Shown one piece after another: positions 13,792 to 61,877 of a DNA stretch of 64,000 nucleotides; within the stretch, counting starts at the first letter, position 1, and each line of letters starts with the position of its first letter. This DNA comes from Mytilus trossulus (lineage: Eukaryota): positions 44,578,001 through 44,642,000 of the forward strand of contig NC_086382.1 of the NCBI RefSeq assembly GCF_036588685.1, read 5' to 3'. The notes beneath the pieces are model-generated. The model searched no databases, had not been told where the DNA came from, and worked only from the letters and a program-made list of their open reading frames with translations. The position numbers and the translations under genes are program-made.

Positions 13792-14528
13792 TCATAGATA
13801 CCAGGACTAAATTTAGTATAGACGCTAGACGCGCGTTTCGTCTTCTAAAAACTCAGCAGTGACGCACGAATCCCAAAAAGTTTAAAATGCCAAATAAAGT
13901 ACGATGTTGAAGAGCATTGAGAACCAAAATTCCTAAAAGTTTTGCCAAATACAGCTAAGTTAATATATGCCTGAGGTAGAAAAGCCTTAGTATTTAAAAA
14001 AAATTCAAAAATTTGTAAACAGTAAATTTATGAATATAACCATATCAATGACAATTCATGTCAGCACAAAAAGTGCTGACTACTGGGCTTGTGATACCCT
14101 CGGGGAAATAAATCTCCACCAGCAGTGGCATCGACCCAGTGGTTGTAAATCAACTCATCATATATACCAGGACTAAATTTAGTGTATACGCCAGACTCGC
14201 GTTTCGTCTTCTAAAGACTCATCAGTGACGCTCGAATCCCAAAAAATAAAAAATGCCAAATAAAGTACAAAGTTGAAGAGCATTGAGAACCAAAATTCCT
14301 AAAAGTTTTGCCAAATACAGCTAAGTTAATATATGCCTGAGGTAGAAAAGCCTTAGTATTTAAAAAAAAATCAAAAATTTGTAAACAGTAAATTTATGAA
14401 TATAACCATATCAATGACAATTCATGTCAGCACAAAAAGTGCTGACTACAAGGGTTGTTATACTCTCGGGAAATAAATCTCCACCAGCAGTGGTTGCAAA
14501 TTAACTCAATATAGATACCAGGACTAAT
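13792..14528 (-). mobile_element. Tandem dimer of a ~366-nt hammerhead-containing repeat (retrozyme-like non-autonomous element)
   Basis: ccaggactaa recurs at 13801, 14167 and 14518; each full unit carries a hammerhead (first copy core mutated to CUGCUGA). Related fragments at 11750-12015, 20438-20660, 23920-24115 (+), 35183-35400. Confidence 0.8.
14188..14233 (-). ncRNA. Type I hammerhead ribozyme (subfamily 1) in tandem repeat
   Basis: GAGCGUCA CUGAUGA GUCUU-UAG-AAGAC GAAA CGCGAGUC/UGGCGU. Confidence 0.82.
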
Positions 14529-17530: not shown

Positions 17531-18262
17531 TTAAGTGTTTAATATGTCAGTCCTTTGTGACTATCAAACAACTTTCAGCGCCATTCACATACAGGATAGA
17601 TCCACCATCCTTGTTTTGTTTTCTGCAATGAAAGTCAGACATGATTGTTTATAGATATACAAATAAAATGCGTTATGTTTGAAAAGAAACAATCTACAAT
17701 AGAATTTAAATGGATCTCAATATTCAATACCTGGGTGTTGAATTTTAATTTTCCTCTACACAAAATGTGGAATTATATTTTCTGTAAGTGACTGGAATTA
17801 GAAAAAGTATAACAAATATATCAGACTCCGAGGTAAATAAAAAAATATATAGTACATAAAAACTGACAAAACTGTAAAGATTCTTTGCTATAGCATTAAT
17901 TGATACTGTTTAACATTGTTTTTTTTTCATATTTTTACAGTTTTTTGTTGATGTCTTTACTACCGATAATGTAAAATTAAATGATTTTTCTTATAAATAA
18001 AAAGTTTTATCGCCACCGAATTTGTAATTTGTAAATGTATCATCCCATTATGCATGTCGTATTTAAAAACAGTGAAAATTAACATGCCGATGAACGACGC
18101 AATGCTTGTTAAATTTATTGTTTGAATTGAAATTTGTGATTTGCTCAAATACACAATTTCAATCCTTGTATCTATGATGAGTTGATTTAATTATTTTTGC
18201 CTTTTAAAGAATTTTTTCTACGTGATATATTCAACTATTAATAATAATACTCCGTATCTTAA

Positions 18263-18541
18263 GGTGGTATCCAACACTTTCACTAAAATTAATTTGGCTC
18301 GTTCAATTTTCATAAAATTTTGACCATGTACTTACTTTGACCTATTTAAAGAAAATATAAAAAAAAAATTAAAATTTTTGAGACCTACCATTTTATCCGA
18401 AAAATTACACTGGTAATATATAGCAGTTTGACAAACACACATTTTGTTCATTGAGACGCTTAATATTCCCTTAACAACAAACGTAATTAAAACGTTGAGC
18501 TGACTTTACAGAGTTATCTCCCTGTAGTGTAAGGTACCACC
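18263..18541. mobile_element. TTAA-flanked non-autonomous DNA transposon (Kolobok-like)
   Basis: TIR GGTGGTA..; TTAA on both sides; absent from the paralogous position near 42200. Confidence 0.7.
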
Positions 18542-20468
18542 TTAACACTTTTCCCATCAATAAAACGAAGGTGTTGTTGGTTATTATTACAACATTTTAT
18601 GGATTTGATTTGTTTTTTAGTGTTTTTCTCTGCTCTCTGCAATTCACTTACAACAGAGACATATAATACAATATAATTGTATTTATATGTCTCTGCTCAC
18701 AATAATGCTAATGACACATAGTAATCTGCTTACTTTGAAAGAATGTTAAACTGATCAGATATTTTACATAAGAGCCGCCGTCTAGTAAACAATGTAAATA
18801 ATGCAATTTGAGAAAAAAGATGATAGTTACGATACTGTGTATCATGTTTACATTTATAGTGACATTTATCGCTATTTTTTGCATTTTTCTTTTGATATTT
18901 TTTTGTGATAATTTTCATATCATTCTTCTCGCTTGAGATGGAATAATTATCACTAGAAACTAAGGAGGCCACGTGGCGTTGCTAACGAAATTGACATGAA
19001 CATGATGAAATTGACAACGTCGTCATAGGTAAAATAGCGATAAATAGATTATCATTGTTCATCTCAACTCGATTGCTTTTCTCACTTTCGCTGTACCAGC
19101 TCAAGCGAGAAAATCAATCTCGTTGAGATGATCAACGATAATCTATAATTATCATTTTGTTTTTGTTTACTGTAATTTATATTCAAAGGTGAAAAACTAA
19201 GATAAAAAGGTATATTTATTGTAAACTAATTGAGAAATTGACCATTTATTAACCTGTTTCGTCTGGAAACAGCTATTTATTTATGATCTTTGGAACGACA
19301 TTTTTATGAGCAAATGGTTTAAAGTATGAGAAATTTATTTATTGTGTGTTAAGCTTTGTTTGTAAAACGTGAATACAGACCTTGAAATATTTTCCGCCTC
19401 TTGTATACTTTGAGGCAATGGCATATTTTTAGTTTCTGGAAGTGCAAACGATAGTAAACCAGCACAAATACCAAAAGCACCAAATATTACCAGCGGTAAG
19501 GCAACACCAAATTTTGTATCAACCAATACACCCTACAAATATATGAAATGAATTGAATGGAATTGTTTTCTACTTGAATTTATTATAACTGTTACATGAA
19601 GATCTGTCAACTGTAACTTATGTTATTATTATTTAACTGTTTTTATTTTTTTGCTTTCGAAGGTTATTTCTATTCCTATCATGATTATGTATGTTCTTAT
19701 TTTACCTTTATCATAGCATGCCTCTAGTGTTTATGGTTTTTTTTATTCTTGAAATCGTATTTTTATAAAGCAGAAAATTAACAGAACCCCGCAAGCTAAA
19801 TTGTGTTTTGAAAAAATAAAACTTTATATACATCTTGTTAAAATTTCGTGATTAGTATGAAAATTTATCATCATACAGAAATAAATATGAAATGATCTCA
19901 ATAACAAATATCTACCAAATCACCAACATAAGCGGACACCATTGATCCAGCATACCCAGCTGAGCTGAAAATTCCAAGCGCAAATGATCTGAGGTTAGTT
20001 GGGAAATTTTCCGCCACCATCAGATAAATATTAAAGTATGCCACTGATATTGTGAGTTTTCCTATCATAGCCAAGGTTATCGTCAACCAGTGTAGGGCTG
20101 TAGTAGACAAAAGAAAATAGGATTAATTAATACTGAATAAAAAATTATATCTGCTTATAGAATACGAAAACACATGTTATGATAAATTTTCAGGCAATTT
20201 TTTTTTCTCTTTTAAAAAACAAACTAGGTATCATAATTCATCCGTCGAGATTTCATTGTATTTAAATAAAAAAAAAATTCAGAGAAAGAATTAAAAATGT
20301 GCAGGACGGACTTTAAATCAATTAAGGTTGATGTGGTACATTCAGTACAATAAAGGCAACAGTAGTATACCGCTGTTCGAAATAAATCGATTGAGAGAAG
20401 AACAAATCCGGGTTACAAACTAAAATTGAGGGACGTAGTTATCAAAGGTACCGGGATTATAATTTAGT

Positions 20469-20514
20469 ACGCCAGATGCGCGTTTCGTTTACATAAGACT
20501 CATCAGTGACGCTC
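20469..20514 (-). ncRNA. Type I hammerhead ribozyme (subfamily 1)
   Basis: GAGCGUCA CUGAUGA GUCUUAUGUAAAC GAAA CGCGCAUC/UGGCGU; mismatches in stems II and III. Confidence 0.7.
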
Positions 20515-21309
20515 ATATTAAAATATTTATAAAGCCAAACAAGTACAAAGATGAAGAGCATTGAGGATTCAAAATTCCAAAAAGTTGTGCAAAATACGGC
20601 GTAGGTAATCATTGCCTGGGATAAGAAAATCCTATGTTTTTCGAAAAATCCAAACTATTGATATTCATTTTAACCCCGAAGACTACTGGGCTGGCGATAC
20701 CCTCGGGGACGAAACGTCCACCAGCAGGAAACATATCAAATATAAGAGAAGACTACTGGGCTGGCGATACCCTCGGGGACGAAAAGTCCACCAGCAGGAA
20801 ACATATCAAATATAAGAGAAGAAAGACACAACAGAAACACAACATTGAAATGTAACACACACAGAAACATACTATAATATAACAATGGTCATTTTCCTGA
20901 CTTTGACAGGACATTTTAAGAAAAAACTGGTGGGTTGAATCTGGTTTTGTGGTATGCCAAACCTCCCGCTTTTATGTTTATATTAAATGTAATATTAAAA
21001 TGGCAACATTTCATGACAGGACTACAACACAAAATAATGGAAGAAACATATAGAACAGATAAACACACGAATACATGCAATAGCTAACAAAAGGTACCAG
21101 GTTTAAAATGATATACGCCACACGCGTGTTTCGTCCACACAAGACCAACCAGCGACGCTACAACCTATATAAAAGAATTTTAAAAGAAGTCTAATCATGA
21201 TATGTAAACAAGACAATTATTTCAGTATGTGCGCTCTTCTTTGTTTTCTTGCATATATGGATATGGGTGCAATGTTTCGGTTCAATGCGTTTTTATTGTT
21301 ATACCCCTG

Positions 21310-22790
21310 TTGACAGAACCGACCTCTTCATATATGATTTATCGTAAGAGCATAAAATGTGTTAAACTTTTTTTTTATTATTATGACCGTTGAACATTGA
21401 AATTTAAACACAGCCGACCTCTCATAGCAACTCATCTTACAAAATTTATCAACATCTTTGGATGTAGGGTCAATGTTCCGGTTCCAAATTTTTTGTTTGG
21501 GGGTTATGCTATTTTGAACTAGAAACAGTTTGATAGGTCCGACCTTGTCATCGTAACTGGTTATCTGAGGGTTATCGCAACATCATAAAAACTACCACAT
21601 TGTTAGATCCATCATATGCAGATGTTCATGTCATTTGAGTCTTTTGTCAATTTGCCCATTGAACTTTAAAATATTGATATAACCGACCTTGTTGGCATCA
21701 CAACTCCTCATACATTGTTTATCGTATTAGCATAAAAACTTATTCATCGGTAGATGCTAAAATGCAGATGTTTGTTTGGGAACGATGTTCCGGTCCTTTG
21801 GTTTTTATTAAGTCCTTTGTACTTGGTAGAAATTTAAACAAAACTGACCATCTCATTCAACTCCTCTTACATGACTTTACATCATATATATGGATGTTGG
21901 ACGCATGATCGGTTCAATGCCATTTTGAAATAGGAAAAGGAGTAGGTCCAGTAAGACCCATTTTTGGCCCCAAAATATAGCAGTTTTATAAAATTGTTAA
22001 AATGTAAACTTTTAGTTATTTATTGGACAGCAGAATGCTTCTTCTCTACATAAATATGGACTGTTTTTGACAATACAATGCACATATATCGGGTACTTGC
22101 ACCATTAAGTCATGCTAAATTACTGAAATCTACACAATTCTATCATTTAAGTTAAATTTTAAACGGTTTTCGTGTAAAACGAAAGAGACCGCATTCGTGT
22201 TCATCCATAATATTGAAATGTAAGTTGTGTTTTATAATAATACGTAACATATATAAAGGTTGAGGATGAACACGGATGCGGCCACTTTCATTTTTGACAA
22301 AAACCATCCGAAAATTGACATTTTTCGGCATATTTGGTAGATTTTTCATATTTGATCTTGAATTGGATCGTTTTTAATGACTAAATCAGTTAAAATCTTT
22401 CACATACACTTATTGATTCAAATGAAATAGACGCTTGAGTGTTTAAAAAGGGGTCAAAATCTTTCGTCAGATAAGCCTGATATTTGAGGCCAAAATCGGT
22501 CCTTACCGGACCTACTCCTTTCGATAAAGTCGACCTTGTATCTCAATTCATCAAACATAGTTAAACGTATCTTCATTATACTTCTCCATTGTTAGATCCT
22601 AATTTAAAGATGTGCATGCGCATAAGATGTTCCTGTCATTTCGTTTTTAATGCTCCCCCTTTTAGTTTTTGAATTTTGGCAGAACTGCCTTTGTCATCGC
22701 AACTCATTCTACATGCTGATATCAATTTACATGTAAACTCAATAATTTCTTGCCAAAAGCATATACGAAATTATAATACTAATATCTATG
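21310..22790. repeat. Degenerate ~140-bp tandem repeat (Helentron/HINE-like core), split by a TIR element
   Basis: gacc(t)tgtcatcgcaactc motif recurs near 21320, 21416, 21541, 21684, 21846, 22531 and 22687. Confidence 0.55.
21936..22521. mobile_element. Non-autonomous TIR element, superfamily unassigned
   Basis: TIR AAAGGAGTAGGTCC(A/G)GTAAG; no clear TSD; inserted in a ~140-bp satellite. Confidence 0.7.
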
Positions 22791-24038
22791 CAAACTCCCC
22801 CGCAGTTCCAACTCCGATCCGCATACGGGTCCGCATACTACTCTACACATTGATGATGTGCAGGAAAATAGTAATAGGAACGGAAACGATCACTGTACGG
22901 AGTTCGGTATCTATGATGAGTTTATTTACCACTTCCACCGCATCGTTGATTAACGGGTGCATATGGCTGATATACGGCGAATCTATGAAATTCATAATAA
23001 AAATTCAGACCAAATGTTTCATCAAGAATTGAAAGTTGTGTATACAGTTAATTTACAATTATGATTATACAGTATCAGTACTGGACTGGTGATTCCCTAG
23101 AGGAATAAAACTCGACCGGCAGTAAATCGGCCAAGTAGTTGTAAAGGAATTCATCATATTAAAGCTTGTTAAAAAGTGTTTAATGTACTACTTACATGGG
23201 CCACCGTACAAAGATGAAAATATTGTACACAGACAACCGATGCCACAAATTAACATAGAAGAACTGAATATTTTCTTTCTTCCAAGTCTTTCCACAACAT
23301 AAAGACATATGAATAAGGCAATTACTTCAGCTGACGTTGATATTAAATAATTCACATAGACATCCCCACCTAAGTTACCAACTTTCATTGTGATCCCAAA
23401 ATAAGTCATACTTATTGAAAACCTGTAAAACAATTCAATATTAAGCTACATTTTCACCATAACAGAAGAAAGTGTACTAACACATTTTGTACCAAACACA
23501 GTCAAAAACAGTGCAAAAAATATTGTTTTTTATTTCATCATACTATCTCTCACAATCAGTTTTTTTTTTTTTTAGAAAATTTGAAGAATAATATTATTAA
23601 ACGTACACGTTTTATTTATAACACATACAACTTTATAGCGATCTCGAATACGTCAGTGATTCCATGTTTACTTAAGAATGTGTTAGCAATTCCTTTCAGT
23701 TTTATATATCATATTTTCATTTTTTAAATAACTTTTTGTTCGGTTTCCCTTTTTAAAGGTAAATATAATAAAAATAAAGTTTATCAAATACGTGTTGCTG
23801 GTATGAGGAGAAATGCAAACTCCGTCAATTATAATTGTTTTTACAGCTACATCTACATTGTGCCTTTTGTCTGAACAGCATTACTGGAAACTGCTGGGAA
23901 CTGGCAAATACAGTTGTTCAATCTGTGCATATTTTGTAATTCCAGGCATTGATTACCTTAGCCGTATTTGGCACAATTTTTTGGATCCTCAATGCTCTTC
24001 AACTTTGTACTTGTTTGGCTTTATAAATATTTTGATAT

Positions 24039-24084
24039 GAGCGTCACTGATGAGACTTCTGTAGACGAAACGCGCGTCTGGCGT
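24039..24084 (+). ncRNA. Type I hammerhead ribozyme (subfamily 1)
   Basis: GAGCGUCA CUGAUGA GACUUCUGUAGAC GAAA CGCGCGUC/UGGCGU; one stem II mismatch; predicted cleavage after 24078. Confidence 0.8.
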
Positions 24085-25734
24085 ACTAAATTATAATCCT
24101 GGTACCTTTGCAAACTATTGTAACTTTTTATAATAAGATAAAATGTGATATGATTGCCTATAACTAACCATCAATCGTTCAAATGCATTAAATAAAAGTA
24201 TCATATATGATTAATATCATTATTGAGTTGAAATTGCTTTGCCTGGACACGTCATAAAATGAATACATTTCTTGGCATAGTGGTAGAACGATTGCCTTCA
24301 GTGTGATATAGTGTGCTCGATTTCAGGTAGTTTCAAATGAAAGCCTTGACCTTTTACCTCCCTGCCAAATATGCGTCCTCAATTAGAACAGACTGATCGA
24401 TTTGAAGTCATAAGTGTGTGGGTATGATAACATGTCCATTTTCTAGCTTTTAGCTTGTTAAATAGCACATTGAATATCCGGCTACGCGTGTCGGTCAAAT
24501 ATAAAACTGTCACCGGACGTTCAACAATAATTCAAACTTCCATGCTGTCATAATATGGCATTGCTTTATAAAATACTCCAAAATATTGCTGCCAATAAAT
24601 TGATGTACTAACTAATTTACAAACGTGTTTAGGTTATTGTTTCAAAATACTTACCAATTAAACATAAAAATAGACAATCGAACAGTTAGAATTTTTGACT
24701 TGTAAAGCTCTCCGACGGCTGTACAAAATGCAACCTTTTCATGTTACTCATCAACCTTAATTTTCTGAATGTCAATTTCGAAATTAGCATTATTTTCTTT
24801 TGCAATATCCTTTAGAATCATTTCAGATCTTGATGACTTCCCCTTCGCTATCAACCATCGTGCCGACTCTTTCTGGAATCTTAGATATATTATTGCTAAC
24901 TATAATTATTTGCGTTCGAAATGAAAATTGTTTGAGGGGCTATCATTTTCGTACGCTGTTGATAATATTATGTAGACGTAATGCACTTTTGGCGTACCAA
25001 ATTGTAAGCCTTGGATAATTGAATATTTTTTGTTAAAACTTTTTTACCAATTCAGATAGATCTATATTGTAAAATCTGTGTTTATTCAGTCGCAATTAAA
25101 ACACAAAAAAATGCTTTATCGAGTATATAAATTTTATGGAAACTTATTTAACCAAAATGTCAAATGGAGAACAGCAATACCATTACTGTTCCTTTAATCT
25201 TTGTGTTTCCATGTACGCGTAGTGATTTTGTGTCTGGAATTGTTTTGCCATATCCTGTCGTTTCCTTAAATTAAATTTATTCTTATAGTTTTGCTGCATT
25301 TAAAATAAAGCTATGTATTTGCTATGATAATACTTGATATATATATATCTTTCTTTCTACTTTCGAAAATATGGTTTAACATGTGGCTATCTATGAACGA
25401 ATAAACTCAGTTAAAATATACGGCTTCATTATATTACTTGATATATATCTACATACAGTAATGAGGTGAGAAATATACCAACAACTATTGATGTTGACCA
25501 GCCCAGAATACGCCAATCCCTGATAAAGTAGGCAAAAATAACAAGCACGTATTCTCCAATGCAGAAGGAGAAATAATAGGCAAAGTTTGCGAAAACTCTT
25601 TTAGAGGGATCCACCAATTTGGTAGCTAGAACGAAAACATCTAAACTGATGAACATCATTAATATGCACAAAACATATTTATATCCTACAGATTTTGAAC
25701 TGTTACAGTGAGGTTTTTGATACAAATCAGAATT

Positions 25735-27140
25735 AAGAAACTGAATTGGTCTATCAATGCCCATGCTACGTCAATCTTTAAAGACCATCAATGTTGTAAA
25801 CACGTATCCTACCTCCATGACAAATTTGTTGTTGTCCCCGCAGAGAATCCCGAAACAACATCTAACCAAAGAAAATATCCTGGATAATCATAGGTCTTTA
25901 CTAACTTCCTTTGGAATTTCAACCAAAGATGAAGAACTGGGTCTTCAATCACTGTATTGCATACCTAAACTACTTAAGTGTCCTTACAAACCATGGTATA
26001 TTGCTGGGTCTTCCAAGTGCTCCACGAAACCTCTTCCTAAATTATTTACATCCATTTTGACAGCAATATTAGGCGGACTTTGAAGTTATTGTGAAGCTGC
26101 CTATTCTAGAGGTGGTATGAATCAGATGTGGCTACTAAAAAAATCCAAAGATCTTTTAGAGTACATACAATCTAACTCTCTTTCATCTGTAATATTATTA
26201 AAACATTTTACTTTTCTCCACTTTACAAAAGTATTCCACATTTCAAACTTTAAGACAAATTGAAAGAGTTGGTATTGGTTTATTTCATAAAAAAGAATGA
26301 CCAACGTAGATACAAGTATATTGTCTTAGGGAGGGATAAATCCTACTTTGTAAAGAATCAATCTGATTAAAACAAAAAATTCTTTGAAACTGACATTATC
26401 AAGATCTTGATTTCTTGATTGACAACATATTTGTATCGTTCGTAGGACGTGTTTTTCAACAGACTGTCAGAATTCCAATGAGAAGCAATTGAGCCCCTCT
26501 TCTTGTCGACTTATTTCTTTATTATTATGAGGCTGTCTTCATACATGAACTTCTTAGGAAGAAAGTTAAGAAGTTAGCAATATCCTTTAATTTAACGTTC
26601 CGCTATATAGATGAATTTCTCTCACTACATAATTTGAAAATTGGTGACTATGTTGAACGCATGTATCCCATCGAATTAGAGCTAAAGGATACAACAGATA
26701 CAGCTAAGTCGACCTCATATCTTGACATACATCTAGAAATTGACAGTGAGGGTCGTCTGAAAAAAAAACTTTACGAGATGATTTCAGCTTTCCAATTGTG
26801 AACTTTTTATTTCTAAGTAGCAACATTCCAGCAGCACTTACATACGGGGTATATATCTCCCAATTGATACGATATTCCCATGCTTATATTTCCTATCATG
26901 ATTTTATGATAGAGTGTTTCTATTTACAAGGAAACCATTAAACCAAGAGTTCCAAACCATCTGATTAAGACTATTTACCGGATTTGTTTACCGGATTTGT
27001 TATAGCATGAGCAACACAACGGGTGCACATGTGGAGCAGGATCTGCTTACCCTTACGGCATGTGTACTATTGCTTGTCTTTTCCATTTTTAGCCATCGCG
27101 TTGTCAGTTTAATTTCGATTTTTAAATTTGACTGTTCCTC
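25735..27140 (+). mobile_element. Degenerate Penelope-like retroelement (RT relic plus terminal repeat)
   Basis: LY(C)IPKL.K.PYK...IAGSSKCSTKPL in ORF 25757..26083, then broken Q..(G)IPM...APLL.DLFL and FRYIDE (RYIDD) near 26600; multiple frameshifts; absent from the equivalent intron of copy B. Confidence 0.8.
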
Positions 27141-29244
27141 TTGTATCTTTTTCTCTCTTTTTTAATAATTGACGTAAAGTTGAATTATTCCAAATGAGAA
27201 TAGCAAATTTATTATTTTCGCTAACTGTAATTGCAATGCATCATCTAAAATAGAATAAATTTTGAATGCCAATTTTATGAGTCTTCAAATTCGCTGTCAT
27301 GTTTCCGTTTAGTGAACGTTAAAACATATCCCTACTAATCACATACTTTTATGGGACACAGCATACCTAGAATATAACCTGGATCATACACAAGCATGCT
27401 GAAATAACCGTTCGCAAAAATCAGGAAACCAACAAGTGGAAGAGACGAAACGAAAGATCTTATCAAATTTGGTAACATCATTCCTATAAGCGCTGTTGTC
27501 AAAACAGGTCGTCTACCTAATCTGAATTTGAAGAAATATATTGTGTATGAGTTGGTTACCAAATTAAACAAAACAGCTTGAACAGTATGTTCCTTCTGGT
27601 GGTTTTATTTAAGAAACTTATTAACTAAACAGAATCGCTTATTAAGTTGATAGAGACGTGATATGATCTTGATGTAATCAGTCATAATTTTAAAAGTGTT
27701 AACACAGTGATTTGTTTCGCCTGAGTGTCATTTCGGCTACGTAATTCAAAAATTAAAAAGCAAACACTGAAATCTGTTCACTATGCCAACGTTTCAAAGA
27801 CAGTAGACTTTCGAGGAGACGGCGGCGCCAAGTGGTCTCCACGGAAATAAATGTACCAATACCAATTGAACTTCCTACCAAATATTATTATGACGTATTT
27901 ACACTTAATCCGTTGGATGTTGGATGCCTATTACATGATAACTTAGTCTTAGAAGCATGATTTTTTATTATTTGTTATTGGCTGTTTATTCAATTGGTTT
28001 AATACTTATAATGAATTGTAACATCATGGTCCTAGATTAGGGGAGGATTGGGATCCACCTAACATATTTACCATATTTACATTCTATATGTATGTTACTG
28101 ACCCAAACCAAGAGCCTGTAATTCAGCAGTTGTCGATTTTTGCTATGTTACATACTTGTTTTTGTTCAGTTTTTTGGAACATTAATGAGGTCGCGAGTTT
28201 TGTATTGATTTGCAGTTTTCATGTTGGTGACTTTCATAGCTGACTATACGGTATGGTCTTTGTTCATTGTTGAGGGCCGTATACTGACCCGTAGTTGTTA
28301 ATTTTTGTGTCACTGTGGAGAGTTGTCTCATTGTAATCATACCACATCTTCTTTTTATATATACAGTAAGTTCAAACAGAATAGGACATACACTCTAACT
28401 ATTACGGAAATGTTGTATACCTAGCCCGGAAATTGAAATATGATTCAAGTAAACGTACCGATCTTTTTCAATTAACTTATACTAAAATGTTACTAATTCA
28501 ACAATGTTATTAGGTCTTTAAATGTTGTTTTTAAGTGTAAAAATATTGATTTTGCTATCAGGAAATCAAAACCAAATAAAAAAGTATAGTATATAAAAAT
28601 GCATATGCACGGAATTACAATCTTTTAATACCTGTAATTAGGTATGGCACGTTTTTCTCGGACTGCTAAAGACGTCTTTGCACTTAATTCATTGGATTTT
28701 GGATGTGCACTGATTGATATTTAAGATACTAATTTTTCAGTCGGTGTTATTGACTTCAAATTCATTGTCAGTAACTCAGAGTATTCTCAGATTTGTAACC
28801 TGTAATTTTGTATTGTGGGATGTATAAAAACCTCCACTGTCCAAGGTTAAGGGAGAGTGTGGGGCCTCCAAACATGTTTAATCACGCTATATTCTGTATG
28901 TGTATGTACCAAGTCAAAACCTGTAATTCAGGGGTATTCGTTTGTTGCTGTAAATCATATTTTTGTTATGTTCATTGTTTTGAACATAAACCAGGCCGTT
29001 AGTTTTCTCGTATCAATTATTTACATTTATCATTTAGGGGCATTTTATAAATACCTATGGAGTATGTATTTTGTTCATAGTTGAAGGACTAAGAATGACC
29101 TATGGTTGGAAATTTATATGTCGTTTAGTCTCTGGTGGATTGTTGTATCATTGGCAATTATAAAACATTATATTATTCTTATAATATATGCGATAATTAG
29201 TTTGTCTCAGGTGAGATAATAAAATTAACGGTACCAATTTTCTT

Positions 29245-29290
29245 GCACCAGATGCGCATTTCGACAATACATGTCTCTTCAGTGATGCTC
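29245..29290 (-). ncRNA. Type I hammerhead ribozyme (subfamily 2), all stems intact
   Basis: Minus strand GAGCAUCA CUGAAGA GACA-UGUAU-UGUC GAAA UGCGCAUC/UGGUGC; stem I GCAUCA:UGGUGC, palindromic stem III AUGCGCAU, AUC cleavage triplet. Confidence 0.85.
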
Positions 29291-32200
29291 GTGGCCAAAA
29301 GATAACACTCTAGAGAAAATACAGCAATGAGCATTTTGATTCTAAATCTTCAAATATAATAATGGCGTTAATTTCAAATTAGACAAAAAGAAATCATATT
29401 TCAGTACTATTATTTGACATCTAAAAAACAATCTTAAAAACATAATTATTAAAAAGTTTTTACTTTTTTCCCTTTGCTGTGCGTATCTGATGTAGAACAA
29501 AGGAGACTTGTCATCAGATAGCCGTACGACATATGTCACTATAGGTGCAAACCTTTATAGAAGTTCGGAAGATTTATTTATTGCTTAAAGAACCTTTGTT
29601 TTGTTTACTTTTGTGTCTTTGTTTTTTTTTGTAGCCATACTGTCGGCTATTTTTCAATTTTGTGTACTCTTTACGAATGTCGAATGACGTGTATGCATAC
29701 GTACGTGTCCGAAAACATTCCATACGTCATAGCACAGCAAAAAAGTCCAATATAATAACAAAGCATCGTGTGACTTCTTACGAATTTGTTGTCGCATACC
29801 ATATCCAACTGAAAAATGGTAACCCGTGAATAATTTTCTTGCACAAACTGTAAACATCAATTTGAATGTGAAATACTAATGTACAAATAAGTTGTTTGTG
29901 TTGTGAGCATTTTACTTGGTTAACACGCTTTGTGTTATTGCTTTCATTGACTTCATTTTTAACTTACATATTCGTTTGTTATTCAGCATTTAAACCCGTT
30001 GTATTTGTATGCAACCGTCGATATCCTGTTGTTCATTGGTTGTCGTTTGCTGGTGTGGATATATATATATAGTTGTTCATGTCTGTCGATTTTTTTATCG
30101 ACAAGATAACTGTTTTGAATGACTTTGGACTAATCAATTTGGGGCTCTTTTGAGCTTAATGTTCGGTGTAAGCCAAGATTACTAGTTGAAGGCCATACTT
30201 TTATTTAATTTTTTTAATTTTTAAGGCAAATTAATCGGAAGAAGTTTCACCCCTTCTCCCACCCCCACTCACACACAAAAACACATACAAGATAAAAGAA
30301 AAAAGTTGAATTAGAATGACAGCAGCGGAAAAGAAGAAAATCTTAAGTGATAAATATTACATCAGATGTTAATATATAAATAATTATTACTATGAGAAAC
30401 CATCTACTTTTCACTAGTGCGACTGTTATCTGTAAGAAATGTCAAAAAGCTAAAAATCTAGGAAAATTTTTTATTTTCTGCAGAAAAAGCACGTTATGGT
30501 TAATTATTCAAATGTTCATTTTTAATTTAATATATCTATATGTCATACTCCGCTTAATTCTTTCATTGATTAGTATAATTTGTGTATAAATGTTATATTA
30601 TGCAGTATATTATCTATTGGATATTTATGTTGTGTAAAACCAATAAGCTGCATTTGCGCACGGAAATAAAGTTTTATTAAGTTAGTTGTACGCAATACTT
30701 ACTGTTGAAATAAGTGTAGATTTGTACTGACTTTGATCGTAGACCCACTCATTACAGGCTGTTGTACTTCCATTTTGATATACAAAACATTCAGAAATGT
30801 TGCAGCCCTATTAAGAGTACTGTTAAATGGATCCACCATGGTTTTTGGCATTTGGCATCTGCAATATATTGACAAATGAATCAATTTTTACAGGAAAGGT
30901 TTTCAAATTAATCCGTATGCAATTCGCATTTATCATATAAAATTAAATCTTCGTTTAGTCTGAGGTCACAGCAGACATATTTTTAGAATGCCAATATTTT
31001 CTCAAGATTGAGACAAAAAAAAAAACCATTTCAATGTTGTTGTCTGCTTGTTTTTTACTCTATTCGACATTTTACTTTTTGATTGTTCCTTGATATTTTC
31101 TCTCTCTTTTTTTTCTTCTTTAAAAGTCAGAAAAATAACAATTGAATCGTTTCTCAACGGCTCAACAAGATGTACATCTGTACAATTTTTCTATTTCTTT
31201 GGTGGCTTTGTACGTTTTTTCGTAACGTGTTATCGAACCGTTTTTTGGAAGGGAAGTGTCATGACCTCATATTCAGATGTTTACAATGAACGATCAATCA
31301 GCATTTTCTGTGTCAATGAATCAGCTGTTAAAAAGTAAAATCACAAAAATACTGAACTTAGAGGAAAATCAATTCGGAAAGTCAATAATCACATGGCAAA
31401 ATCAAATAACAAAACGCATCAAAAACGATTGGACAAGAACTGTCATATTCCTGACTTGGTACAGGCATTTTCAAAAATAGTCTTAAAATATAATATGTAT
31501 TGTTTAACACATCTTCAATGTCGATTTATAAAGGAACAACATAATTGCGTACTTATTAGAAACGTTTAAATGTACCAGGACTACTTACTTAAAAATATAA
31601 CCTACACCGGATTCCCGGATATCACTACGGCATATACAATTATTGCGTTTTTAATTAATAACAAGTGTATCGCGTATTGTAATTATCAGTAAAAAAAATT
31701 TCTGTGTTTGAACAGCGGTATACTGTTGCCTATATTTATCGCGTATTGTTGTCTGGCATTCCGATTGAAAAAACTACTTACCTGTGCTTATGATCGCCAA
31801 GTATAAATGTCAGCATGTATGAAGTCATGGGATCCAAAAACGGAGGAATCAATAACAGAGCCAGCATGCGTTTCTGAAAACGACCAAACCCGCCAATCTC
31901 TATTAGAAGCTTGTCGTAATTCATGTTGGTCCTGACAAAAAAGTCAAATCGGCAAACTATTTTGTTTGGATAAAGTATTACCACAAGTAAAGAGATTACT
32001 TGTAAAAGAATTATTTTTTTGCGAAAAAATGTCCAACATTGTTTTTTTTAAATCCGCCTCATTGGATCACTAGTGGATAGTAAACAATCGTACAGCAGAT
32101 ACTGTTTATGCTATAATAAATCTAAATCGGATGCATCTAAATAAATGAAGCACTATGAATGAACGTACTATATTGGAATTATGCTTAGAATGCATTTTCC

Positions 32201-32644
32201 CCCGTTAATCTTCAACACATGCAAGAAAAAGGCCACCATTGCAGTTTACGTACTTGGCTTTATTGAGTAATTATACAATATATACACAAAAGAAGATGTG
32301 GTATGACTGCCGATTAGACATCTCTCCACCAGAGACAAAACGACGTAGAGGAAGCAATTATTGACAACAACGAGCAAAACCAATACCGCATAACAAGCTT
32401 TTTTTTATATTTTAACATTGATTAGGATAGAAAAGGTTTCTTTTCTGAAAATGATCGAGTTTCTTAAAGGGGATAAGCTGTCAAATACATGTTCATTAAT
32501 TCAACTCTGAATCTTAGTTATTATCCATTTGTTTTTTGGGTGTTTGGGCTTTTCTTTTTGCCATTTGAATATGGACTTTTCCTCGGAATTCTGTATTTGC
32601 GTTATTTTATTATTTGCTCGTACTTAATTACAAAAAAAATAATG

Positions 32645-33985: not shown

Positions 33986-35211
33986 ACTTACAACTGATAA
34001 GATGGCAATTTAACTGGTATGTTATTTATTTGTTTTTTGGGGGGTTTGTGACCCGGATTTGTTTAAATAGATTGATGACTTTTAAACAATTTGTCCAAAA
34101 TGGCCCACAGTATAGTCATACACCAATTCAGTGGGGTTGTGAGGAAACTGAAGTTAATAGCGTTACCGATTTACAACTATTAAAACAAATCTATTAAAAA
34201 AGGGAAGAAAGATACTAGAGCAACAGTCAAACGCGTCAATCGAAAATAACAGACAACGCCATGGCTCGCTGGCCAGAAAAATTCCTGAATGGGAAATTAC
34301 CTTAAACAATAGAATTACCCCTATACAAATATGTAAACATTATTTCACATTTCAAGAAGTCCTGTTAGTGATGTCATTACATTAATCTTCTTAAATGAAG
34401 TTACGATTACTAAAATCCGTAAAGTTAAAATAATTGTAATTTTGTAATTACCCTTTCATCTAACATGTACCAATATTCTTACATTCCGGATTTGGTTTAC
34501 ACATTTGTATAACAAATTAGTGCTGTTTCAAAATCATGTTTTAATTAGATCAAAAACATTGAACGAATTCGTCAATTTATTACCGAAGAAGCATGCAAAA
34601 TGTGAGACCTGCTTTTTATAGTTCTTAAAATATTTCAATATTATTGTAATTTTTAAGCAATTATATTTTTAACTTTTAACGTACCTTTTGGGGTAATTTT
34701 AGAATTTTTTAGCACATATTTTTGAAGTTTTAACTTACTTTTTTGGTACGGTTTCAATATCTCCTTTAATTTCAGCATGCCAATTTTACATGCATTTTAT
34801 TGTTTATTTGTGCAATATTTTTTTAAATCTGTTTGCTTTAGGAGTTTTTTACATGGGCTTTCATATTTTTTTTTAATTTGAAATTTACTCTGTTTGATGA
34901 TTTAATCAATGTAAATATCATCATTAGTTATAAATATATATGAATGAAAGTTCTTAATTCTACGGATCATTTTTCTACCCGAACAACAAAAAACTAATCA
35001 TGCAAACACATCTTGCTTTTAAGAAAGCTCAAACTTGTAATTTTCTTTATTTTCAAAGTGTATACTATTGTTGCGTTTCATTTAAGTCTGTGTCAACAAA
35101 GCGTTTACCAGAACGTAATAGGTGTTAGCACATAACGTACTATGTGTTTGTACATAACTTAATTGGTGTTTGCACATAATAGATATCAAAGGTACCAGGA
35201 TTATAATTAGT

Positions 35212-35257
35212 ACGACGGACGCGCGTTTCGTCTACATAAGACTCATCAGTGACGCTC
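35212..35257 (-). ncRNA. Type I hammerhead ribozyme (subfamily 1), stem I weakened
   Basis: CUGAUGA GUCU-UAUGU-AGAC GAAA CGCGCGUC intact; 3' strand of stem I mutated. Confidence 0.7.
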
Positions 35258-35651
35258 ATTTCATAACCAAAAAGCCAAACGAGTACAAAGTTGAAGAGCA
35301 TTGAGGATACCAAAAAGTTGTGCCAAATACGGCTAAGGTAATCTATGCCTGGGATAAGAAAATCCCTAGTTTTTAGATAAATTCAAAGTTTGTAACAGGA
35401 AAGGACTAGGGGCTATAAGGGCCATTTTTGGCCCCACCCCCAAATTTCATTTAATTTGTCATGTTGTAAGTCTATACCATAGACCTTCTGAAAATAATCG
35501 AATTTTGGGTCTAGCTCGTTTATTCTGTTGCCTAGCAACCACTAAAATGGCGGGGTTAAATTCATCAAATATGATTATTATACAGCTTTAATATATCTTT
35601 ATTTGAAATTGAACCTGTTTAGCATGTAGTGAACTTTACACTTGTACACTA

Positions 35652-36039
35652 TGGATACATCTGTTGTAGGGTTGTCACTGACTCAGACGTACTTATGAAT
35701 ATAATTATTTTCTGTGACTGTATCTTACATTAATTTGTAGGATCCTTTACTATAGATAATTTAGCTGATCTGTAACAATAACATCTTCATGCCTTATATA
35801 TCATGTACTGTAGTACGCCGCTAGATTAAAACTGACGTGGAAAGGTAACATATGGCCACCGAAAGCTTTTTTTTTGAGAGCCCAGGTGGTCGTGTGGTCT
35901 AGCGGGACGGCTGCAGTGCAGGCGATTTGGTGTCACGATATCACAGTAGCATGGGTTCGAATCCCGGCGAGGGAAGAACCAAAAATTTGCGAAAGCAAAT
36001 TTACAGATCTAACATTGTTGGGTTGATGTTTAGACGAGT

Positions 36040-36070
<31 letters not shown>
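35652..36070 (+). mobile_element. ~440-bp repeat with internal tRNA-like A/B boxes, ending in (TA)n
   Basis: A box TGGTCGTGTGG (~35887), B box GGTTCGAATCC (~35954); further copies at 7255-7652, 37205-37360, 61180-61308 and 61310-61550 (-). Confidence 0.75.
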
Positions 36071-37171: not shown

Positions 37172-38329
37172 ATCCATATATATATATATATATATATATA
37201 TACATTTGCAAATTTACAGATCTTACATTGTTGGGTTGATGTTTAGACGAGTTGTATATACATAATGTACATAGCCATGTATCACCATCACTGCTGGTGA
37301 TACAATGGATAAATCTGTTGTAGAGTTGTCACAGGCTCAGGCGTACTTATATAATTATATATTTCTACGTTTATACGGATATATGGATAGTCTACCTTAT
37401 GCTGTTTCCATTTTTTACCATCAAATTTTTAAGAACTTGTTCTCTATGCACATTCCCCACAAAAACACATCCAATTGGAATATAGGTAGGATCATTTTCG
37501 AAATAAATCTCGTGTTTCTCGTCAATTATGGAAATTTAAGTAAAATACACCACCCCCCCTTTTTTTCGTTACATAAATCATGGATCTGACCCTAATACCA
37601 GAGAGAGAAGATTGCCCCATTCAAACAACAAATTTTGAATTTATAATTAGCAAAAACATCAGAAATGTACAGATTTTGTTATATTGAAGGTCTATCTAAA
37701 ATTTCATAATAAAAAAAAATGTCCTCAAAGTTGTTATTGACTGCCTTACACATGAAGGTCATTGCTGTCGGATTTTTTTAAAGAACCTTAACTAGATATA
37801 CTTAAGAAAATATATAATTAGGAATACACTTAACATTCATAAACAAAAAGAATAAGTTTCTATAGGCATAAGAATGTACAAATGTATAAACTAAACTTTG
37901 TCAGATGAAAAGGTCCAATTTGGACTGCAAATTTCAGCTTTTTATTGCTCCGCTTGGCTATAAAAAATATAAAATAAACTATCGCACCAACCTTGCACCA
38001 AAAAGATTTTTTATCCGAAGTTTGATATGTATGAACCTGTCAAAATGTTAAAATTTCTAATTGGTGCAAGCATGGTGTGGTGGTCAAAATTTAGAAAAAA
38101 CATCAAATTTTTGGTATTTTTGCTTATTTTCCCAATAATGACGTCATTTACACCTACCATTGTGACGTCATTGAACCTTTTTTAGTTAAGTAAAAACATT
38201 TTTTTTAAATAATTTACTCATATTCTAATAATTTATGGAGAAAAATCTGCTCTGTTAGAATTTTTATTATCTTGTAAATCTGGGGCCATTTTAGGCCATT
38301 AAAGCCCATACTAAATGACCACATTATGA

Positions 38330-38725
38330 TCGATGTTTTGACATAATGTAATAGGCATTTGTACATAATGTATATAGGTGTTTGAACATAATGAAATAGG
38401 TATTTGCACATAATGTAATCGGTGATTGAATCTACTGAATTGGGTGTTATGCATAACGTAATAGGTGTTTGCACATACTGAATTGATGTTTGGACAGAAT
38501 GTAATAGGCATTTGCACATACTGGCATAGGTGTAATAGGTATTTGCACAAAACGTAATAAGTGTTTGCCCCCAACGTAAACGATGTTTGCACAAAACGTA
38601 TAAGTTGTTTGCACATAATGTTATAAGAGCTTGCAAATAATGTATTAGCTGTTTTAACATATGGTAAAATGCATTTGTACGTGACGTAATGAATGCTAAC
38701 AGAGTGTAACAATTGTTCAGCAAAA
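38330..38725. repeat. ~22-bp minisatellite (GCACATAATGTAATAGGTGTTT)n
   Basis: Tandem periodicity; the same unit occurs at 35110-35180; explains ORFs 38214..38723 and 38311..38772. Confidence 0.85.
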
Positions 38726-41307: not shown

Positions 41308-42630
41308 TAATAATATCAGTTTATAAACCAAAAAAAATTAATAGAAATTAATATATTATCTAATATTCGTTTAAGTGTTTATTATTTCAGTCCTTTGTGA
41401 CTATCAAACTACTTTCAGCACCTTTCAGATACAGGATAGATCCACCTTCCTTGTATTGTTTCCTGTAATGAAATTCGTGCATGATTGTTTATTAATATAC
41501 AAATAAAAAGTAATCAAAGGTACCAGGATTATAAAATGCGTTATGTTTAAATAGAAACTACAACAGAACTGATTCGCCAATATCCTATGACTGTTGTCAA
41601 ATTTTGATTTTCTACTCACAAATAGTATAATTGAAATTTCCTTAAGTAAATGGAACTAAAAAAGGTATATCGAACTCCGAGGTAAATAAAAAAAATAAAA
41701 AAATGTGCAGTCTTTAAAAACTGACAAAACTGTGAAGATTCTTTGCTATAGCATTATTTGATACTGTTTAACATTGATTTTACGTTTTTTTTTCTTTTTC
41801 TATACTACCAATAATATAAGGTTAAATGTTGAAAATACTTTTTAATTAAAAAACACTGTTGTTGCCACTGAAACCTATATTTTTTCTGTTTAAATAAGTC
41901 CAGCGTGTGTTTCGTATCTTAAGAACATTGAAAAATAATATGTCGATGAATGACTTCAAGTCTCATAGTTTTCTCGTTTTAATTGTTTATATCAGTGATT
42001 TCGGGGTCTTTCATAGCTGACTATGTTGTATGGGCTTTGCTCATTGTTGAAGACCATAAGATGACTTATAATTTATAATTTCTGTGTCATTTTTGGTCTT
42101 TTGAAAGAGCTGTGATATTGGCAATCATACCACATCAACTTCTTTATATATATTTTTCCACCTGATATAATCAACTATTTATACTCGTACTCCGTTCTTT
42201 TACACATTTCCCCATTAATAAAACAAAGATTTCGGTGGTTATTATTACAATTTTTTATGAATTTGATTTGATGTTAAGTGATTTTCTCAGCTCTTTACAA
42301 TTATGATAATGACAAATAGAAATGTGTTTCTTTGACAGAATGATAAACTGTTAAAATAGAGCCGTCGCTTAGTCACCAATGTAAGTAGTGTAAAGTAAGA
42401 AAGAAAAAAGTAATTACAATACTCTGTATCATGTTTACATTTCTAGTGCTACTTATAATTTTGTATGTGTTTACTGTTAAGTCCTTTTGATAGGTTGAAA
42501 ACTAAGATAAAAAAGTATAATTTAATGAAATCCATTGAGAAATTGCCCATTTGTTACCTATGTTTTATCTGAAACAAAAAATTTCTTTTTTAAATGTATC
42601 TTATGAACGACATTTTTATTAGCAAATGGT

Positions 42631-42855
42631 TTAAGGTTTAAAATCATTTGAGAAATCCATTCCTTTAATTTTAGGTTTTTGTTGATTAGACATAAAAACA
42701 GACCTTGATATATTTTCAGCTTCTTGTACACTTTGAGGCAATGGCATATTTTTAGTTTCTGGAAGGGCAAATGATAGTAAACCAGCACAAATACCAAATG
42801 CACCAAATATTACCAGCGGTAAGGCAACACCAAACTTTGTATCAACCAATACACC
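42631..42855 (-). CDS. SLC22 copy B terminal coding exon
   Basis: LPLVIFG...LPETKNMPLPQS, read through to TAA at 42631. Confidence 0.8.
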   Translation of the reverse strand, partial: GVLVDTKFGVALPLVIFGAFGICAGLLSFALPETKNMPLPQSVQEAENISRSVFMSNQQKPKIKGMDFSNDFKP

Positions 42856-45800
42856 CTACAAATATATAAAATGAATTTACCGGAAATTAACTAATCATAA
42901 TTGATAATTGAAGAACCTGGGAAATGTCACTTAAAAGTATCATTATTTTTTTTTATTTTAGGGTTATTCGTTTTCCTTTTATGCTTCTGACTGTTAAATC
43001 TTACTTTCATTAAAGCATGCTTCTCATGATTATTGATTTTTCATATTTCATAAAAGCAAGAAATTAAATGATTTTTGAAATCCTAATTTGTTTTGATTTG
43101 GTAAAAGTAAAATATATATGTAAACATCTTGTCAAAATTTCTTTCCTCGTTTCGAAAAATGGTCACCATAAAAAAAATGAAATATTCAAAAACACATATT
43201 TACCAAATCACCAACATATGCAGACACCATTGATCCAGCATACCCAGATGAGCTGCAAATTCCAATCGCAAATGATCTGAGGTTAGTTGGGAAATTTTCC
43301 GCTACCATAAGATAAATATTAAAGTATGCCACCGTTATTGTGAGCTTTCCTATCATAGCTAAGGTTATCGTCAACCAGTGAAGGGCTGTAGTAGACAAAT
43401 GAAAATACTATAAAAAACATGTTATTATACTTGCATACAAAGTTTTTGTCCGACGTGGTTTAAATGCATTTAAATATAACATAGATGCAGAGAAAGAAGT
43501 CAATATAAGTGGGAAGGACTTTTAAGTGCATTTAGGTATTACTAGCTATGCTCATTTTAACTAAGAAATGTTGATTAAACAAACCTTGTCATTGTTATTC
43601 CTTCTACATGTCGTATCTACATGAAACTACATTACTATATGCTAATGCATTCGTGGATTAACATTTGAGTTCCATGATGAATGGATATAAGTCATATTTT
43701 ACAAAGCCGAATTGTATAAATTGACTTTGTAAAATTCAGTTTAAAAATTATCAGTCTGAATAGTTGTGTATTTTTCATAGTTTATGAAATTGATTTGGAT
43801 CAATGCTAAACAAGGTATTAATTCCAATGGAACGATAGCAAAGAAATTGCATATATATCTATGATCATATCACCTGATATCATTGATAACTAACAGAGAA
43901 ATATATGATGCATTTCAAGAGCTAATGATGGGAATGGAAAACGACAAAAAAGTATGTTATCTTAGTGTAACAAGCAATTTCAAGTCTCTTACAATTGATG
44001 ATATTAGTGCGACCCAACCTAAATTTTCTACATATTCATCTGCTATTGTTCAATCTATTTTAACTTTTTTTCAGTTCTATTGTTTTATTGAGTGAACACA
44101 ATAGCTATTGTTCTGTGTGTAGTCTATTCACCGGTACCTTTAGATTTATTCGCAAATAAAAGTTTAAATAGATTGAAACTGTGTAAATGTTTCATTTGTT
44201 TCGCCATATTTTTTTCATGCAGTTTGTGCATTTTAAACCGTTCGCTAAAATAAGATAGAAAGCAAATATGAAAAAAAGTCATTGACTCAAAAAAAAAAAC
44301 CACCAACGAATTATGTTATGATACAGAGTCTGGAAGCAAGTATATGTTGGGTCGCTATGAACTGTACCTGATTATAGAAAAAATAATCGTTTGCGTATAG
44401 AAAGTTCCAAAAAGTTCCCCTCCAATTATTGACAGTGAAAACTATACTATTTGTTTCACATCTATTAGCAAATGGAAATGCGAGATGAATTGTACATAAT
44501 ATAATGCATTTGCAATCATCGATGGAAATGTTCACATTGGTTGAACTCCTTTACAAATACGTACGTTATTCGGCATGTTAAGAAAGCTCATATATACTAA
44601 AGTTATGTACTTAAGGGGCTTTTTCAAAAGTCTTTATTACACTTTGATTGTAACGAAAGCATTTAAAAGTGTTCATAATTCTACTTACATGGACCACCGT
44701 ACAAAGATGAAAATATTGTACACAGACAACCGATGCCACAAATTAACATTGAAGAACTAAATATTTTTTTTCTTCCAAGTCTTTCCACCACATAAAGACA
44801 TATGAATAAGGCAATTACTTCAGCTGACGTGGATATTAAATAATTCACATAGACATCTCCACCTAAGTTACCAACTTTCATTGTGATCCCAAAATAAGTC
44901 ATACTTATCGAAAACCTGTAAAACATATTACAATATTATTTAATAGCTCTTTTTTTACCATTACACCATAAAGTGTAGAAATATCACGCAAACGTTTGAT
45001 AAAAGTAAAAGAAAATAACAAAACGAAAAGTTTTAAAAACAAAACATGCATTGTTAAATTCTATTGAATTGTCAGTTTTCAGTGTTGACTTGATAATGCA
45101 TTGGCTATTCCTTAGATTTTCGTTTATTTCATAACTTATTGATGGTGATTTTTAAAGACCTTGACTTGCTTTACAGCCCTTGCACGGTCGGTTTAATGTT
45201 TTCGTGGTTAACAGTAAATATACATGTAATATAGTTATCCAATAAATGTAATTGATGGGAAAAGAAATGCTTACTCCGTTAATTATAAAAGTGAAACTGC
45301 TGCGTCCACAATGTGCCTTCTGTCTAAACAGAAAACTAGAAACGGTTAGAAATTGGTATGCAAATACCGTTGTTCAATCAGTCCATATTTTCTGGCTTTT
45401 TATACAAAAATAAGATATGGTATGATTGCAAATAACTATTCAACAATCGTAATACTTTCAAATATGATTTATATCAATATTGAGAGAAATTGGTTTTTTT
45501 TTATTGCAATTCAATGGTAAATTGCTTTGCTTGGGCATGCTATGAAATGAATATACCGATTAGTATCATGGTCTCATGATTGCCTAGAGTGCATGATATC
45601 GTGTGCTCGATTTCATGTTGTTTCAAATAATATCCTTGACCTTTTAGCTACATCTCCGCTAAATATGCGTCCTTAAGTAGTAAGAAGAGACTGATCAGTT
45701 CAAAGTCATAAGTAAGTGTCTGGGTATGGTAACATGTCCTGCTGCTATATTTTAGCTTGTGACGTTGCATATACGGCTTAGCATGTCGGTCAAATATAGA

Positions 45801-53140: not shown

Positions 53141-53329
53141 TAATACTTTCCCTATTTTAGACATTTAGAGTGACTTTATTACTAAAAAAACTTCTTACAC
53201 TTTTTTAACACTTGCTCCTTGTCTTTATTAATTGCGGTTTTTGTAAATGTTTTGTATAGTTAACTTGGGGTTTCTTATTCCTTCTTACTACAAATTATAC
53301 CATTCTGCTACTGCATTGGAGTTGTTATA

Positions 53330-61560: not shown

Positions 61561-61877
61561 ATATATAATAAAAATTAATTGAGACAATTTCTATTTTTTT
61601 TTAGATATTTTTTTCTGTGACAAAATTTCAAAAATACCAGAAATCTTTAGAATTACTCTAAAATGCGTGTTTTGCGTACCATATATTTAGCATAGTAACA
61701 TAATGCAGGATACCGAGCAAAACGATATTACCAAAATAGATTAAATAGTGTTAAAAAGTGTGTTTTTTCCTGGAACAAGTTTAAGGGTGGTGTACTTGTA
61801 TCGGCGAATTAAGATACGGAACACAAATTACCAATGCATTTCTTAAGATTTTAATCAGATAAATGATTTTCCCATAC

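Follow-up and report, generated by a model that had tools for sequence, protein, structure and literature searches.

Hammerhead ribozymes of probable non-LTR retrozymes in a Mytilus genome and a conserved predicted hairpin beside their insertion ends

Hammerhead ribozyme cores lie scattered through a stretch of Mytilus trossulus DNA (NC_086382.1, positions 44,578,001 to 44,642,000; the whole stretch of 64,000 nucleotides is the window), and they raise the question of what carries them and how their carriers are inserted. An earlier note, made from the letters alone, had described two covarying subfamilies of minimal type I hammerheads and related them to Penelope-like elements (PLEs) and to retrozymes such as those of mussels. 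We consider it very probable that the motifs belong to non-LTR retrozymes. With good though somewhat lower confidence, we read them as type I hammerheads of non-coding Mytilus tandem units of 350-366 bp, which form at least three related subfamilies; most of the copies here are fragments that have their 3' end in common, with a borrowed reverse transcriptase of Penelope type as the likely agent of insertion.

The window has a GC content of 28-36% and holds two tandem SLC22/OCT paralogues, 17550-31924 and 41390-50344 (-). One SLC22/OCT exon is 95% identical to Mytilus edulis OCT. This, with the non-coding tandem units of 350-366 bp, bears out the mussel origin and the retrozyme context proposed before. 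Relative to the second paralogue, the first has a one-base frameshift near 30801 (pseudogene or assembly error). Other repeats share the window. They include a dispersed family without a hammerhead (2508-2816, 28029-28367, 28839-29183, 32278-32349, 41966-42152, 47657-47773 and 51690-51839), 22-bp minisatellite arrays (52445-53148, 38337-38669 and 35112-35179, the last abutting the retrozyme copy at 35212), and a further family (7251-7653, 35648-36061, 37208-37358 and 61177-61565), two copies of which end at TA microsatellites.

Hammerhead motifs in the window and beyond

All seven hammerhead cores that had been named were found at their place and on their strand: 29245 (-), 14188 (-), 24039 (+), 20469 (-), 35212 (-), 11780 (-) and 13822 (-). 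A hammerhead-specific pattern matched six times in the window, against a mean of 0.00 in 100 shuffles, and a looser core pattern nine times, against 0.85 expected from shuffles. The helices of the motif at 29245-29288 (-) are as claimed (stem I GCAUCA:UGGUGC, stem II GACA:UGUC, stem III AUGCGCAU), and its predicted cut falls after AUC, between 29251 and 29250. The stems quoted for subfamily 1 hold as a majority reading, but most single copies deviate from them; all 12 pairs and the core are kept in only two of the seven named copies, 14188 and 29245. The division into two subfamilies also needs amending: subfamily 2 is distinct, but 'subfamily 1' is two subfamilies with different tails, one comprising 24039, 20469, 35212 and 11780 (1a) and the other 14188 and 13822 (1b). 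Nor are these ribozymes 'minimal', since a helix I of 6 bp, a helix II of 4 bp and a helix III of 2 bp with a palindromic tetraloop are dimensions that PMC4209133 terms canonical.

Four of the five decayed copies reported earlier (21115, 60117, 2182 and 4437) were found by a search model built from 12 copies, with E values of 9e-6, 0.015 and 0.076 for the first three, 4437 being one of the model's own training sequences. The fifth, at 10030, was not found, and what speaks for it is solely a flanking match to the repeat unit. Of the five, 4435 is a subfamily-2 copy and 2180 probably another.

Beyond the window, we scanned metagenomes for hammerheads that have the stem III of subfamily 2 and obtained 12 loci. 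The 29245 motif is present in three of these (L007-L009); the other nine share the ribozyme alone and were excluded from the mussel counts. These nine (L001-L006 and L010-L012, presumably animal genomes) have the subfamily-2 stem III octamer with different stems I and II and no common body, and terminal repeats in L003 and L011 imply units of 1349 and 1230 bp. A first pattern scan of genome contigs gave no match, as did pattern scans of viral contigs for the hammerheads. We rejected 31 bacterial 19-mer matches in genome contigs as chance, because they do not extend (best 38 bp, E 0.005).

The Rfam Hammerhead_1 search proposed for 29245 came out negative: neither 29245 nor 20469 was listed at E<=1. 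The copies at 35212, 11780, 24041, 14196 and 13830 were listed, all below the gathering score; the best RF00163 scores were 31.1, 30.7 and 24.9 bits against a gathering score of 34 bits, which no copy reached. Even at E<=10, the model misses an L007 motif identical to 29245. RF00163 thus misses the whole subfamily-2 family, and hammerhead counts in mussels that are based on it are too low.

Folded as monomers, the isolated 44-nt motifs show no preference for the hammerhead (z -0.6 to +2.0 in 10 of 10 folds). Each of the two stem III octamers is a palindrome by which two copies could pair, with 8-mer self-duplex energies of -10.5 and -13.3 kcal/mol.

Repeat units and selection on the ribozyme

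Self-comparison of the window shows that the hammerhead motifs are parts of a longer repeat. At 13780-14527 (-), two subfamily-1b units of 366 bp form a head-to-tail dimer, as both self-comparison and unit alignment indicate, with one hammerhead per unit: 14188-14231 (-), in which all pairs are kept, and 13822-13865 (-), in which core A6 is changed. Subfamily 2 has a unit of its own, of which L007 holds 1.35 copies of 350 bp with the 29245 motif present twice. The 366- and 350-bp units agree at 248 of 339 paired positions (377 columns), with an alignment score of 204 against -45 +/- 14 in 200 shuffles. This whole-unit homology makes subfamily 2 a sister of subfamily 1 and not an independent element. 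The earlier suggestion of a separate lineage therefore stands insofar as subfamily 2 is a distinct amplified family, but it is a sister family only.

We aligned the contigs of four of 24 listed sequencing runs (four organisms, four studies; one of them, X1, possibly from the same source as the window) to one permuted subfamily-2 unit. Between 10,050 and 33,779 contigs aligned per run (22,264, 10,050, 33,779 and 16,176), a depth that is not equated with copy number, and in all four runs the end of the unit was joined to its start (29, 26, 37 and 21 contigs). These contig numbers and end-to-start joints show that the subfamily-2 family is abundant, tandem and common to these organisms. L007:1140-1520 and L009:175-585 share a 3' flank, with 1.35 units in L007 and a solo hammerhead with another 5' flank in L009; the difference is either an allelic rearrangement through the ribozyme or a misassembly.

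The units have a GC content of 36-39%, their longest ATG frames encode 48 and 72 amino acids, and no reverse transcriptase-endonuclease frame was found in or beside them in the window or in L007. As whole circles, they are predicted to be 62% paired, and their folds are modestly more stable than those of shuffles (z -1.9 in either unit). Several features of non-LTR retrozymes are present: a canonical type I hammerhead in each unit, head-to-tail repeats within 150-450 bp, GC below 50% and no frame.

The two hammerhead variants differ in a way that bears on RNA structure. Compared with the majority of six subfamily-1 copies, 29245 has 12 differences. Four pairs are changed on both strands (one in stem I, two in stem II and one in stem III), and the remaining differences are one G-U to G-C change, two in loop II and one at variable core position 7. 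When changes were placed at random, an undamaged core with every pair retained came out in 1, 2, 18 and 43 of 60,000 trials, the number rising with transition and CpG bias. The double changes that had been taken as compensatory covariation are thus real (at most 43 of 60,000), but they amount to four events, all on a single branch, and two of the four are CpG-type transitions.

Further comparisons draw on more copies. Among 11 distinct copies, 87.9% of the cells pair, against 75.7 +/- 2.1 in shuffles and 18-43% in slid controls. In the alignment of mussel copies, paired cells and covariation score both lie beyond the column shuffle (0/500), and the count of doubly changed pairs (four) does not exceed it (220/500). 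An alignment that includes the nine ribozyme-only loci has double changes in 7 of 12 pairs, although it is model-fitted and stem III was fixed by the search pattern. Within subfamily 2, variants at a frequency of at least 8% affect three of five loop-II positions, as against none of the 39 other hammerhead positions (p 0.0008); the invariance of stems and core relative to the rest of the unit is not significant (0/39 versus 15/217, p 0.14). The hammerhead structure is under selection. Because most copies in the window are broken, this selection concerns the replicating lineage, the masters, and not these loci.

Could subfamily 2 instead be a decayed subfamily-1 copy, with CpG transitions mimicking covariation? 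The double changes in stems I and III are indeed CpG-type transitions. Both stem II changes, however, are double transversions, and the simulations just described include a tenfold CpG bias. The same letters also recur in L007, L008, L009 and 4435, with no variant at 8% or more in the four runs. A fixed family sequence with its own 350-bp unit refutes this explanation, to which we give almost no weight.

Insertion ends and the hairpin domain

Most of the copies in the window are fragments. The motif at 29245 lies in an 80-bp, 5'-truncated subfamily-2 copy (29220-29299, -) made up of 11 nt upstream, the hammerhead and the tail, with candidate 6-bp target duplications at 29300-29305 and 29214-29219. 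At 82 of 84 bases the copy agrees with L007, and at the other two it has the letter that prevails in three or four of the four runs; it is thus a young insertion, and 29245 is intact because it is young. The copy lies sense within an intron of the first SLC22 paralogue, and an intact ribozyme in that position might be thought to be kept by the host to cut SLC22 pre-mRNA. We find this very improbable: 29245 equals the family majority and is simply young, no counterpart was aligned in the paralogous intron (where alignment is poor), neighbouring copies are broken or antisense, and this copy of the host gene is frameshifted near 30801.

Four subfamily-1a copies are in varying condition. The 178-bp, 5'-truncated copy at 23940-24117 (+) holds a hammerhead (24041-24084) with one stem II mismatch and is flanked by a 6-bp target duplication (23934-23939 and 24118-24123), supported by the paralogous gene, where a site near 45390 lacks the insertion and matches in length. 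At 20436-20797 (-), a rearranged copy, locally duplicated as a 70-bp tandem (20678-20822), contains a hammerhead with two mismatches (20469-20512) and part of the hairpin domain described below. The copies at 35180-35402 (-) and 11747-12017 (-) are 5'-truncated; stem I is damaged in the hammerhead of the former (35212-35255), and an insertion disrupts the 5' strand of stem I in the latter. For 29245 and 20469, no empty site could be aligned in the paralogous gene.

Older material accounts for the rest. A decayed subfamily-2 copy at 4408-4480 (-) is 82% identical to the unit and ends at the same unit position as 29245, and 2160-2234 (-) is strongly decayed and probably of the same subfamily (unit match E 2e-4; model E 0.076). 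A unit match also places 9902-10112 (+), missed by the model, with subfamily 1b; its hammerhead is barely recognisable. Self-comparison and the model both detect decayed subfamily-1 sequence at 21079-21159 (-) and 60059-60146 (+), the latter a fragment with a partial hammerhead that stops before the tail. Two decayed fragments were absent from the earlier note, one of subfamily 1b that ends in a ruined core (60953-61067, +) and one of subfamily 1 (24968-25011, +; E 2e-5). There are also a tail-only insertion without a hammerhead (18149-18189, +), further tail-only pieces at 57733-57771 (-), 60362-60394 (+), 22906-22932 (+) and 41508-41534 (-), and an old fragment (23079-23159, -) that extends from the tail past the usual end point and into the hairpin domain.

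The 3' ends of these copies recur at fixed places. Five subfamily-1b pieces in the window end at unit positions 47, 48, 48, 52 and 52, where the hairpin domain starts at 52; two subfamily-2 copies end at position 34, with the domain at 38; and four subfamily-1a copies share one end base, 4-6 nt before the domain by loose-end consensus. Insertions of the three subfamilies tend to end 0-6 nt before the hairpin domain. The distance from the predicted cut to the end differs between subfamilies (33-34, 39-41 and 47-52 nt), with the gap to the hairpin constant. The 5' ends vary, from 27-bp tails up to the 748-bp dimer. Exceptions to the fixed end are 60059, 60953 and 24968, which stop early, and 23079, which crosses the boundary.

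The sequencing runs place the end of subfamily 2 at the same point. In four of four runs, contigs leave the unit for unrelated flanks (agreement 0.37-0.40) behind L007 positions 858-859, with loose ends there in 492 of 5,095, 281 of 2,827, 452 of 4,855 and 418 of 4,351 partly aligned contigs. Of 2,252 loose-end rows, 24 were inspected individually, and among these 24 there is one cluster of ends. Target duplications of at least 6 bp flank 4 of 17 copies, compared with 21 of 272 cross pairs (p 0.04, with ends set by hand from BLAST); the 6-bp duplication is clear at 24039, and 29245 and L009 have plausible ones. PLE-type internal initiation has an ATT target motif; at many junctions here A is followed by TT, possibly through homology to the template.

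Just 3' of the tail, and of the fixed insertion end, lies a GC-rich domain of about 80 nt. The earlier note mentions neither this domain nor the fixed end nor the repeat unit. Identity between the two units is 83% in this domain, 63% in the AT-rich body and 54% in the tail. The domain is predicted to fold alike in both units (z -3.9 and -5.5); in the dimer it occupies 14054-14146 (-), with a predicted fold of -40.1 kcal/mol (z -5.5). Eleven domain variants reach a frequency of at least 8%, five at unpaired and six at paired positions, and the pair is kept in six of the six paired cases; these variants are unphased and mix subfamilies, and three of the partner changes come from the loose-end consensus. 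Two double changes can be seen by comparing the window with L007 directly. With four partial rows as input, RNAalifold gave a different, three-way fold.

An Rfam search of the domain returned nothing credible and no family, and we rejected a twister or HDV-like fold as a poor fit by eye to the consensus. The start of the domain (window 14131-14141, -; L007 868-878) lies one mismatch from the polymerase III B-box consensus; runs of T further along the unit speak against transcription of its full length by polymerase III. On the opposite strand of the subfamily-1a domain, 20691-20718 (+) resembles a broken minimal hammerhead (a core with A6 changed, and GAAA followed by a 4-nt palindrome). As the other subfamilies have a different loop, this likeness is probably chance or a vestige.

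A domain that folds this well invites an explanation at the DNA level, in which the units spread by satellite amplification or through a rolling-circle DNA transposase that acts on the hairpin, with the ribozyme carried along as a passenger. Both strands of the domain are predicted to fold well as RNA (z -2.7 to -5.5), the copies end in T-rich sequence, and 13 of the 17 copies have no clear target duplication. We nevertheless think such spread improbable. Most inserted copies stop at the fixed end and so do not include the hairpin; the one-sided truncation and the duplication confirmed by an empty site fit target-primed reverse transcription; and G-U to A-U and G-U to G-C changes, with an invariant catalytic core, fit selection at the RNA level.

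A possible route of mobilisation and comparison with known systems

In M. galloprovincialis, retrozyme repeats self-cleave during transcription at about 0.1 per min and accumulate as circles, RtcB circularises them in vitro, and PLEs have been proposed as mobilisers (PMC7229834). A PLE enzyme starts reverse transcription inside its own RNA, downstream of the hammerhead; it depends on RNA lying 3' of the start site, and the ends of genomic copies coincide with start sites (PMC11167929). According to a 2020 review, animal retrozymes have no conserved motif that points to a mobiliser (PMC7761336).

From our analysis of ends and folds, we give about even odds to a Penelope-type initiation positioned by the hairpin, and we suggest, tentatively and at slightly less than even confidence, that the covarying hairpin domain of about 80 nt could be such a cis signal of the mobilising machinery: it would position a Penelope-type reverse transcriptase 0-6 nt upstream, set the 3' ends by hairpin distance and force the cDNA across the hammerhead junction. 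By this scheme, transcripts of tandem copies would self-cleave to monomers and a host ligase would close them into circles, as in the M. galloprovincialis literature. The enzyme would dock on the hairpin domain, nick AT-rich DNA and begin the cDNA just 5' of the domain, copying the tail of 33-48 nt and then crossing the hammerhead junction. A cDNA that crosses this junction implies that the template would be a circle or an uncleaved multimer. The enzyme would fall off after anything from 27 bases to two or more rounds, with early termination giving solo copies. Selection would keep ribozyme and hairpin in those masters that complete the cycle, and a solo copy like 29245, which has a single ribozyme and lacks the hairpin domain, would lead no further.

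The window also holds a decayed reverse transcriptase-like remnant at 25745-26970 (+), in an intron, which is 65-81% identical to unnamed proteins and which we take to be of Penelope/Naiad type. Its relatives led to no Pfam or PDB match, and nothing in its sequence matches either unit. Copies of its 3' region occur at 1-67, 3535-3697, 9529-9760, 34194-34266 and 57121-57318. Naiads lack canonical hammerheads, according to PMC8557442.

A different template is conceivable, namely that solo copies including 29245 are 5'-truncated pseudo-LTR ends (pLTRs) of autonomous Penelope-like elements and do not derive from non-coding circles. PLE pLTRs carry type I hammerheads and leave truncated solo motifs (PMC4209133), and Xenopus retrozymes are described as homologous to pLTRs in 10.64898/2026.07.22.740005. 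The remnant just described could be read in the same sense, and an 80-bp fragment alone cannot separate the two templates. We judge this origin unlikely, because the only full units found are non-coding and head-to-tail, the helix dimensions are canonical and not minimal, and the remnant has no sequence in common with either unit. The analysis found no autonomous element with homology to the unit, and homology to pLTRs could not be shown here.

For the retrozyme reading, the practical value may lie in the hairpin. A fixed end tied to a conserved hairpin provides a defined template, a start site and a mutational test for an in vitro PLE assay, and the domain is a motif by which the autonomous partner might be found. 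Among the literature titles and abstract openings searched, which covered few subscription papers, we found no fixed end or hairpin domain in retrozymes. Figures S4, S5 and S9 in the supplement of PMC7229834 may bear on both features.

The closest known system is within the genus. M. galloprovincialis has about 5,000 hammerheads in two similar families with repeats of 350-390 bp (Cervera and de la Pena 2020, PMC7229834). Those non-LTR retrozymes and the units described here agree in genus, type I hammerheads, two similar families, low-GC repeats and the absence of a protein. Compared by genus, unit length and family number, our units are likely identical with the two published families, and it is most likely that the two hammerhead variants of Mytilus retrozymes were already known. 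Loop II is not conserved here, in agreement with the lack of the usual tertiary contacts stated for M. galloprovincialis. Unlike our analysis, the main text of PMC7229834 describes no fixed insertion end, conserved hairpin domain or third subfamily, and its cleavage and circle data are not assignable from the text to either of its families.

Rfam RF00163 (Hammerhead_1) has the same topology, and its consensus stem III octamer is that of subfamily 1. In the minimal PLE hammerhead (Cervera and de la Pena 2014, PMC4209133), helix III is absent, helix II has 7-8 bp and helix I 4-5 bp, and a base is added at 9/10.1. The PLE motifs resemble ours in being type I, in having a palindromic helix III region able to dimerise and in leaving many truncated solo copies. 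Our motifs differ: helix III is present, helix II measures 4 bp and helix I 6 bp, position 9/10.1 carries no additional base, and no reverse transcriptase frame flanks them. Vertebrate non-LTR retrozymes likewise occur as monomers, dimers and truncated copies with proposed PLE mobilisation (Li, Clavereau and Pollet 2026, 10.64898/2026.07.22.740005); in the accessible portion of that study, molluscs are unsampled and the argument comes from homology to pLTRs and not from insertion ends.

The insertion ends themselves have a parallel in the Anolis Poseidon PLE (Frangieh et al. 2024, PMC11167929). That element is autonomous and protein-coding, unlike ours, and starts about 85-90 nt after the cut, as against 33-48 nt here. 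Its main in vitro template is unprocessed linear RNA, and two start sites 30-40 nt apart define its tail, only one of which has a counterpart in the 24 loose-end rows inspected. In both systems, however, genomic ends are fixed inside the RNA downstream of the hammerhead and lie beside AC-rich structured sequence, with AT-rich targets, and Poseidon needs RNA further 3'.
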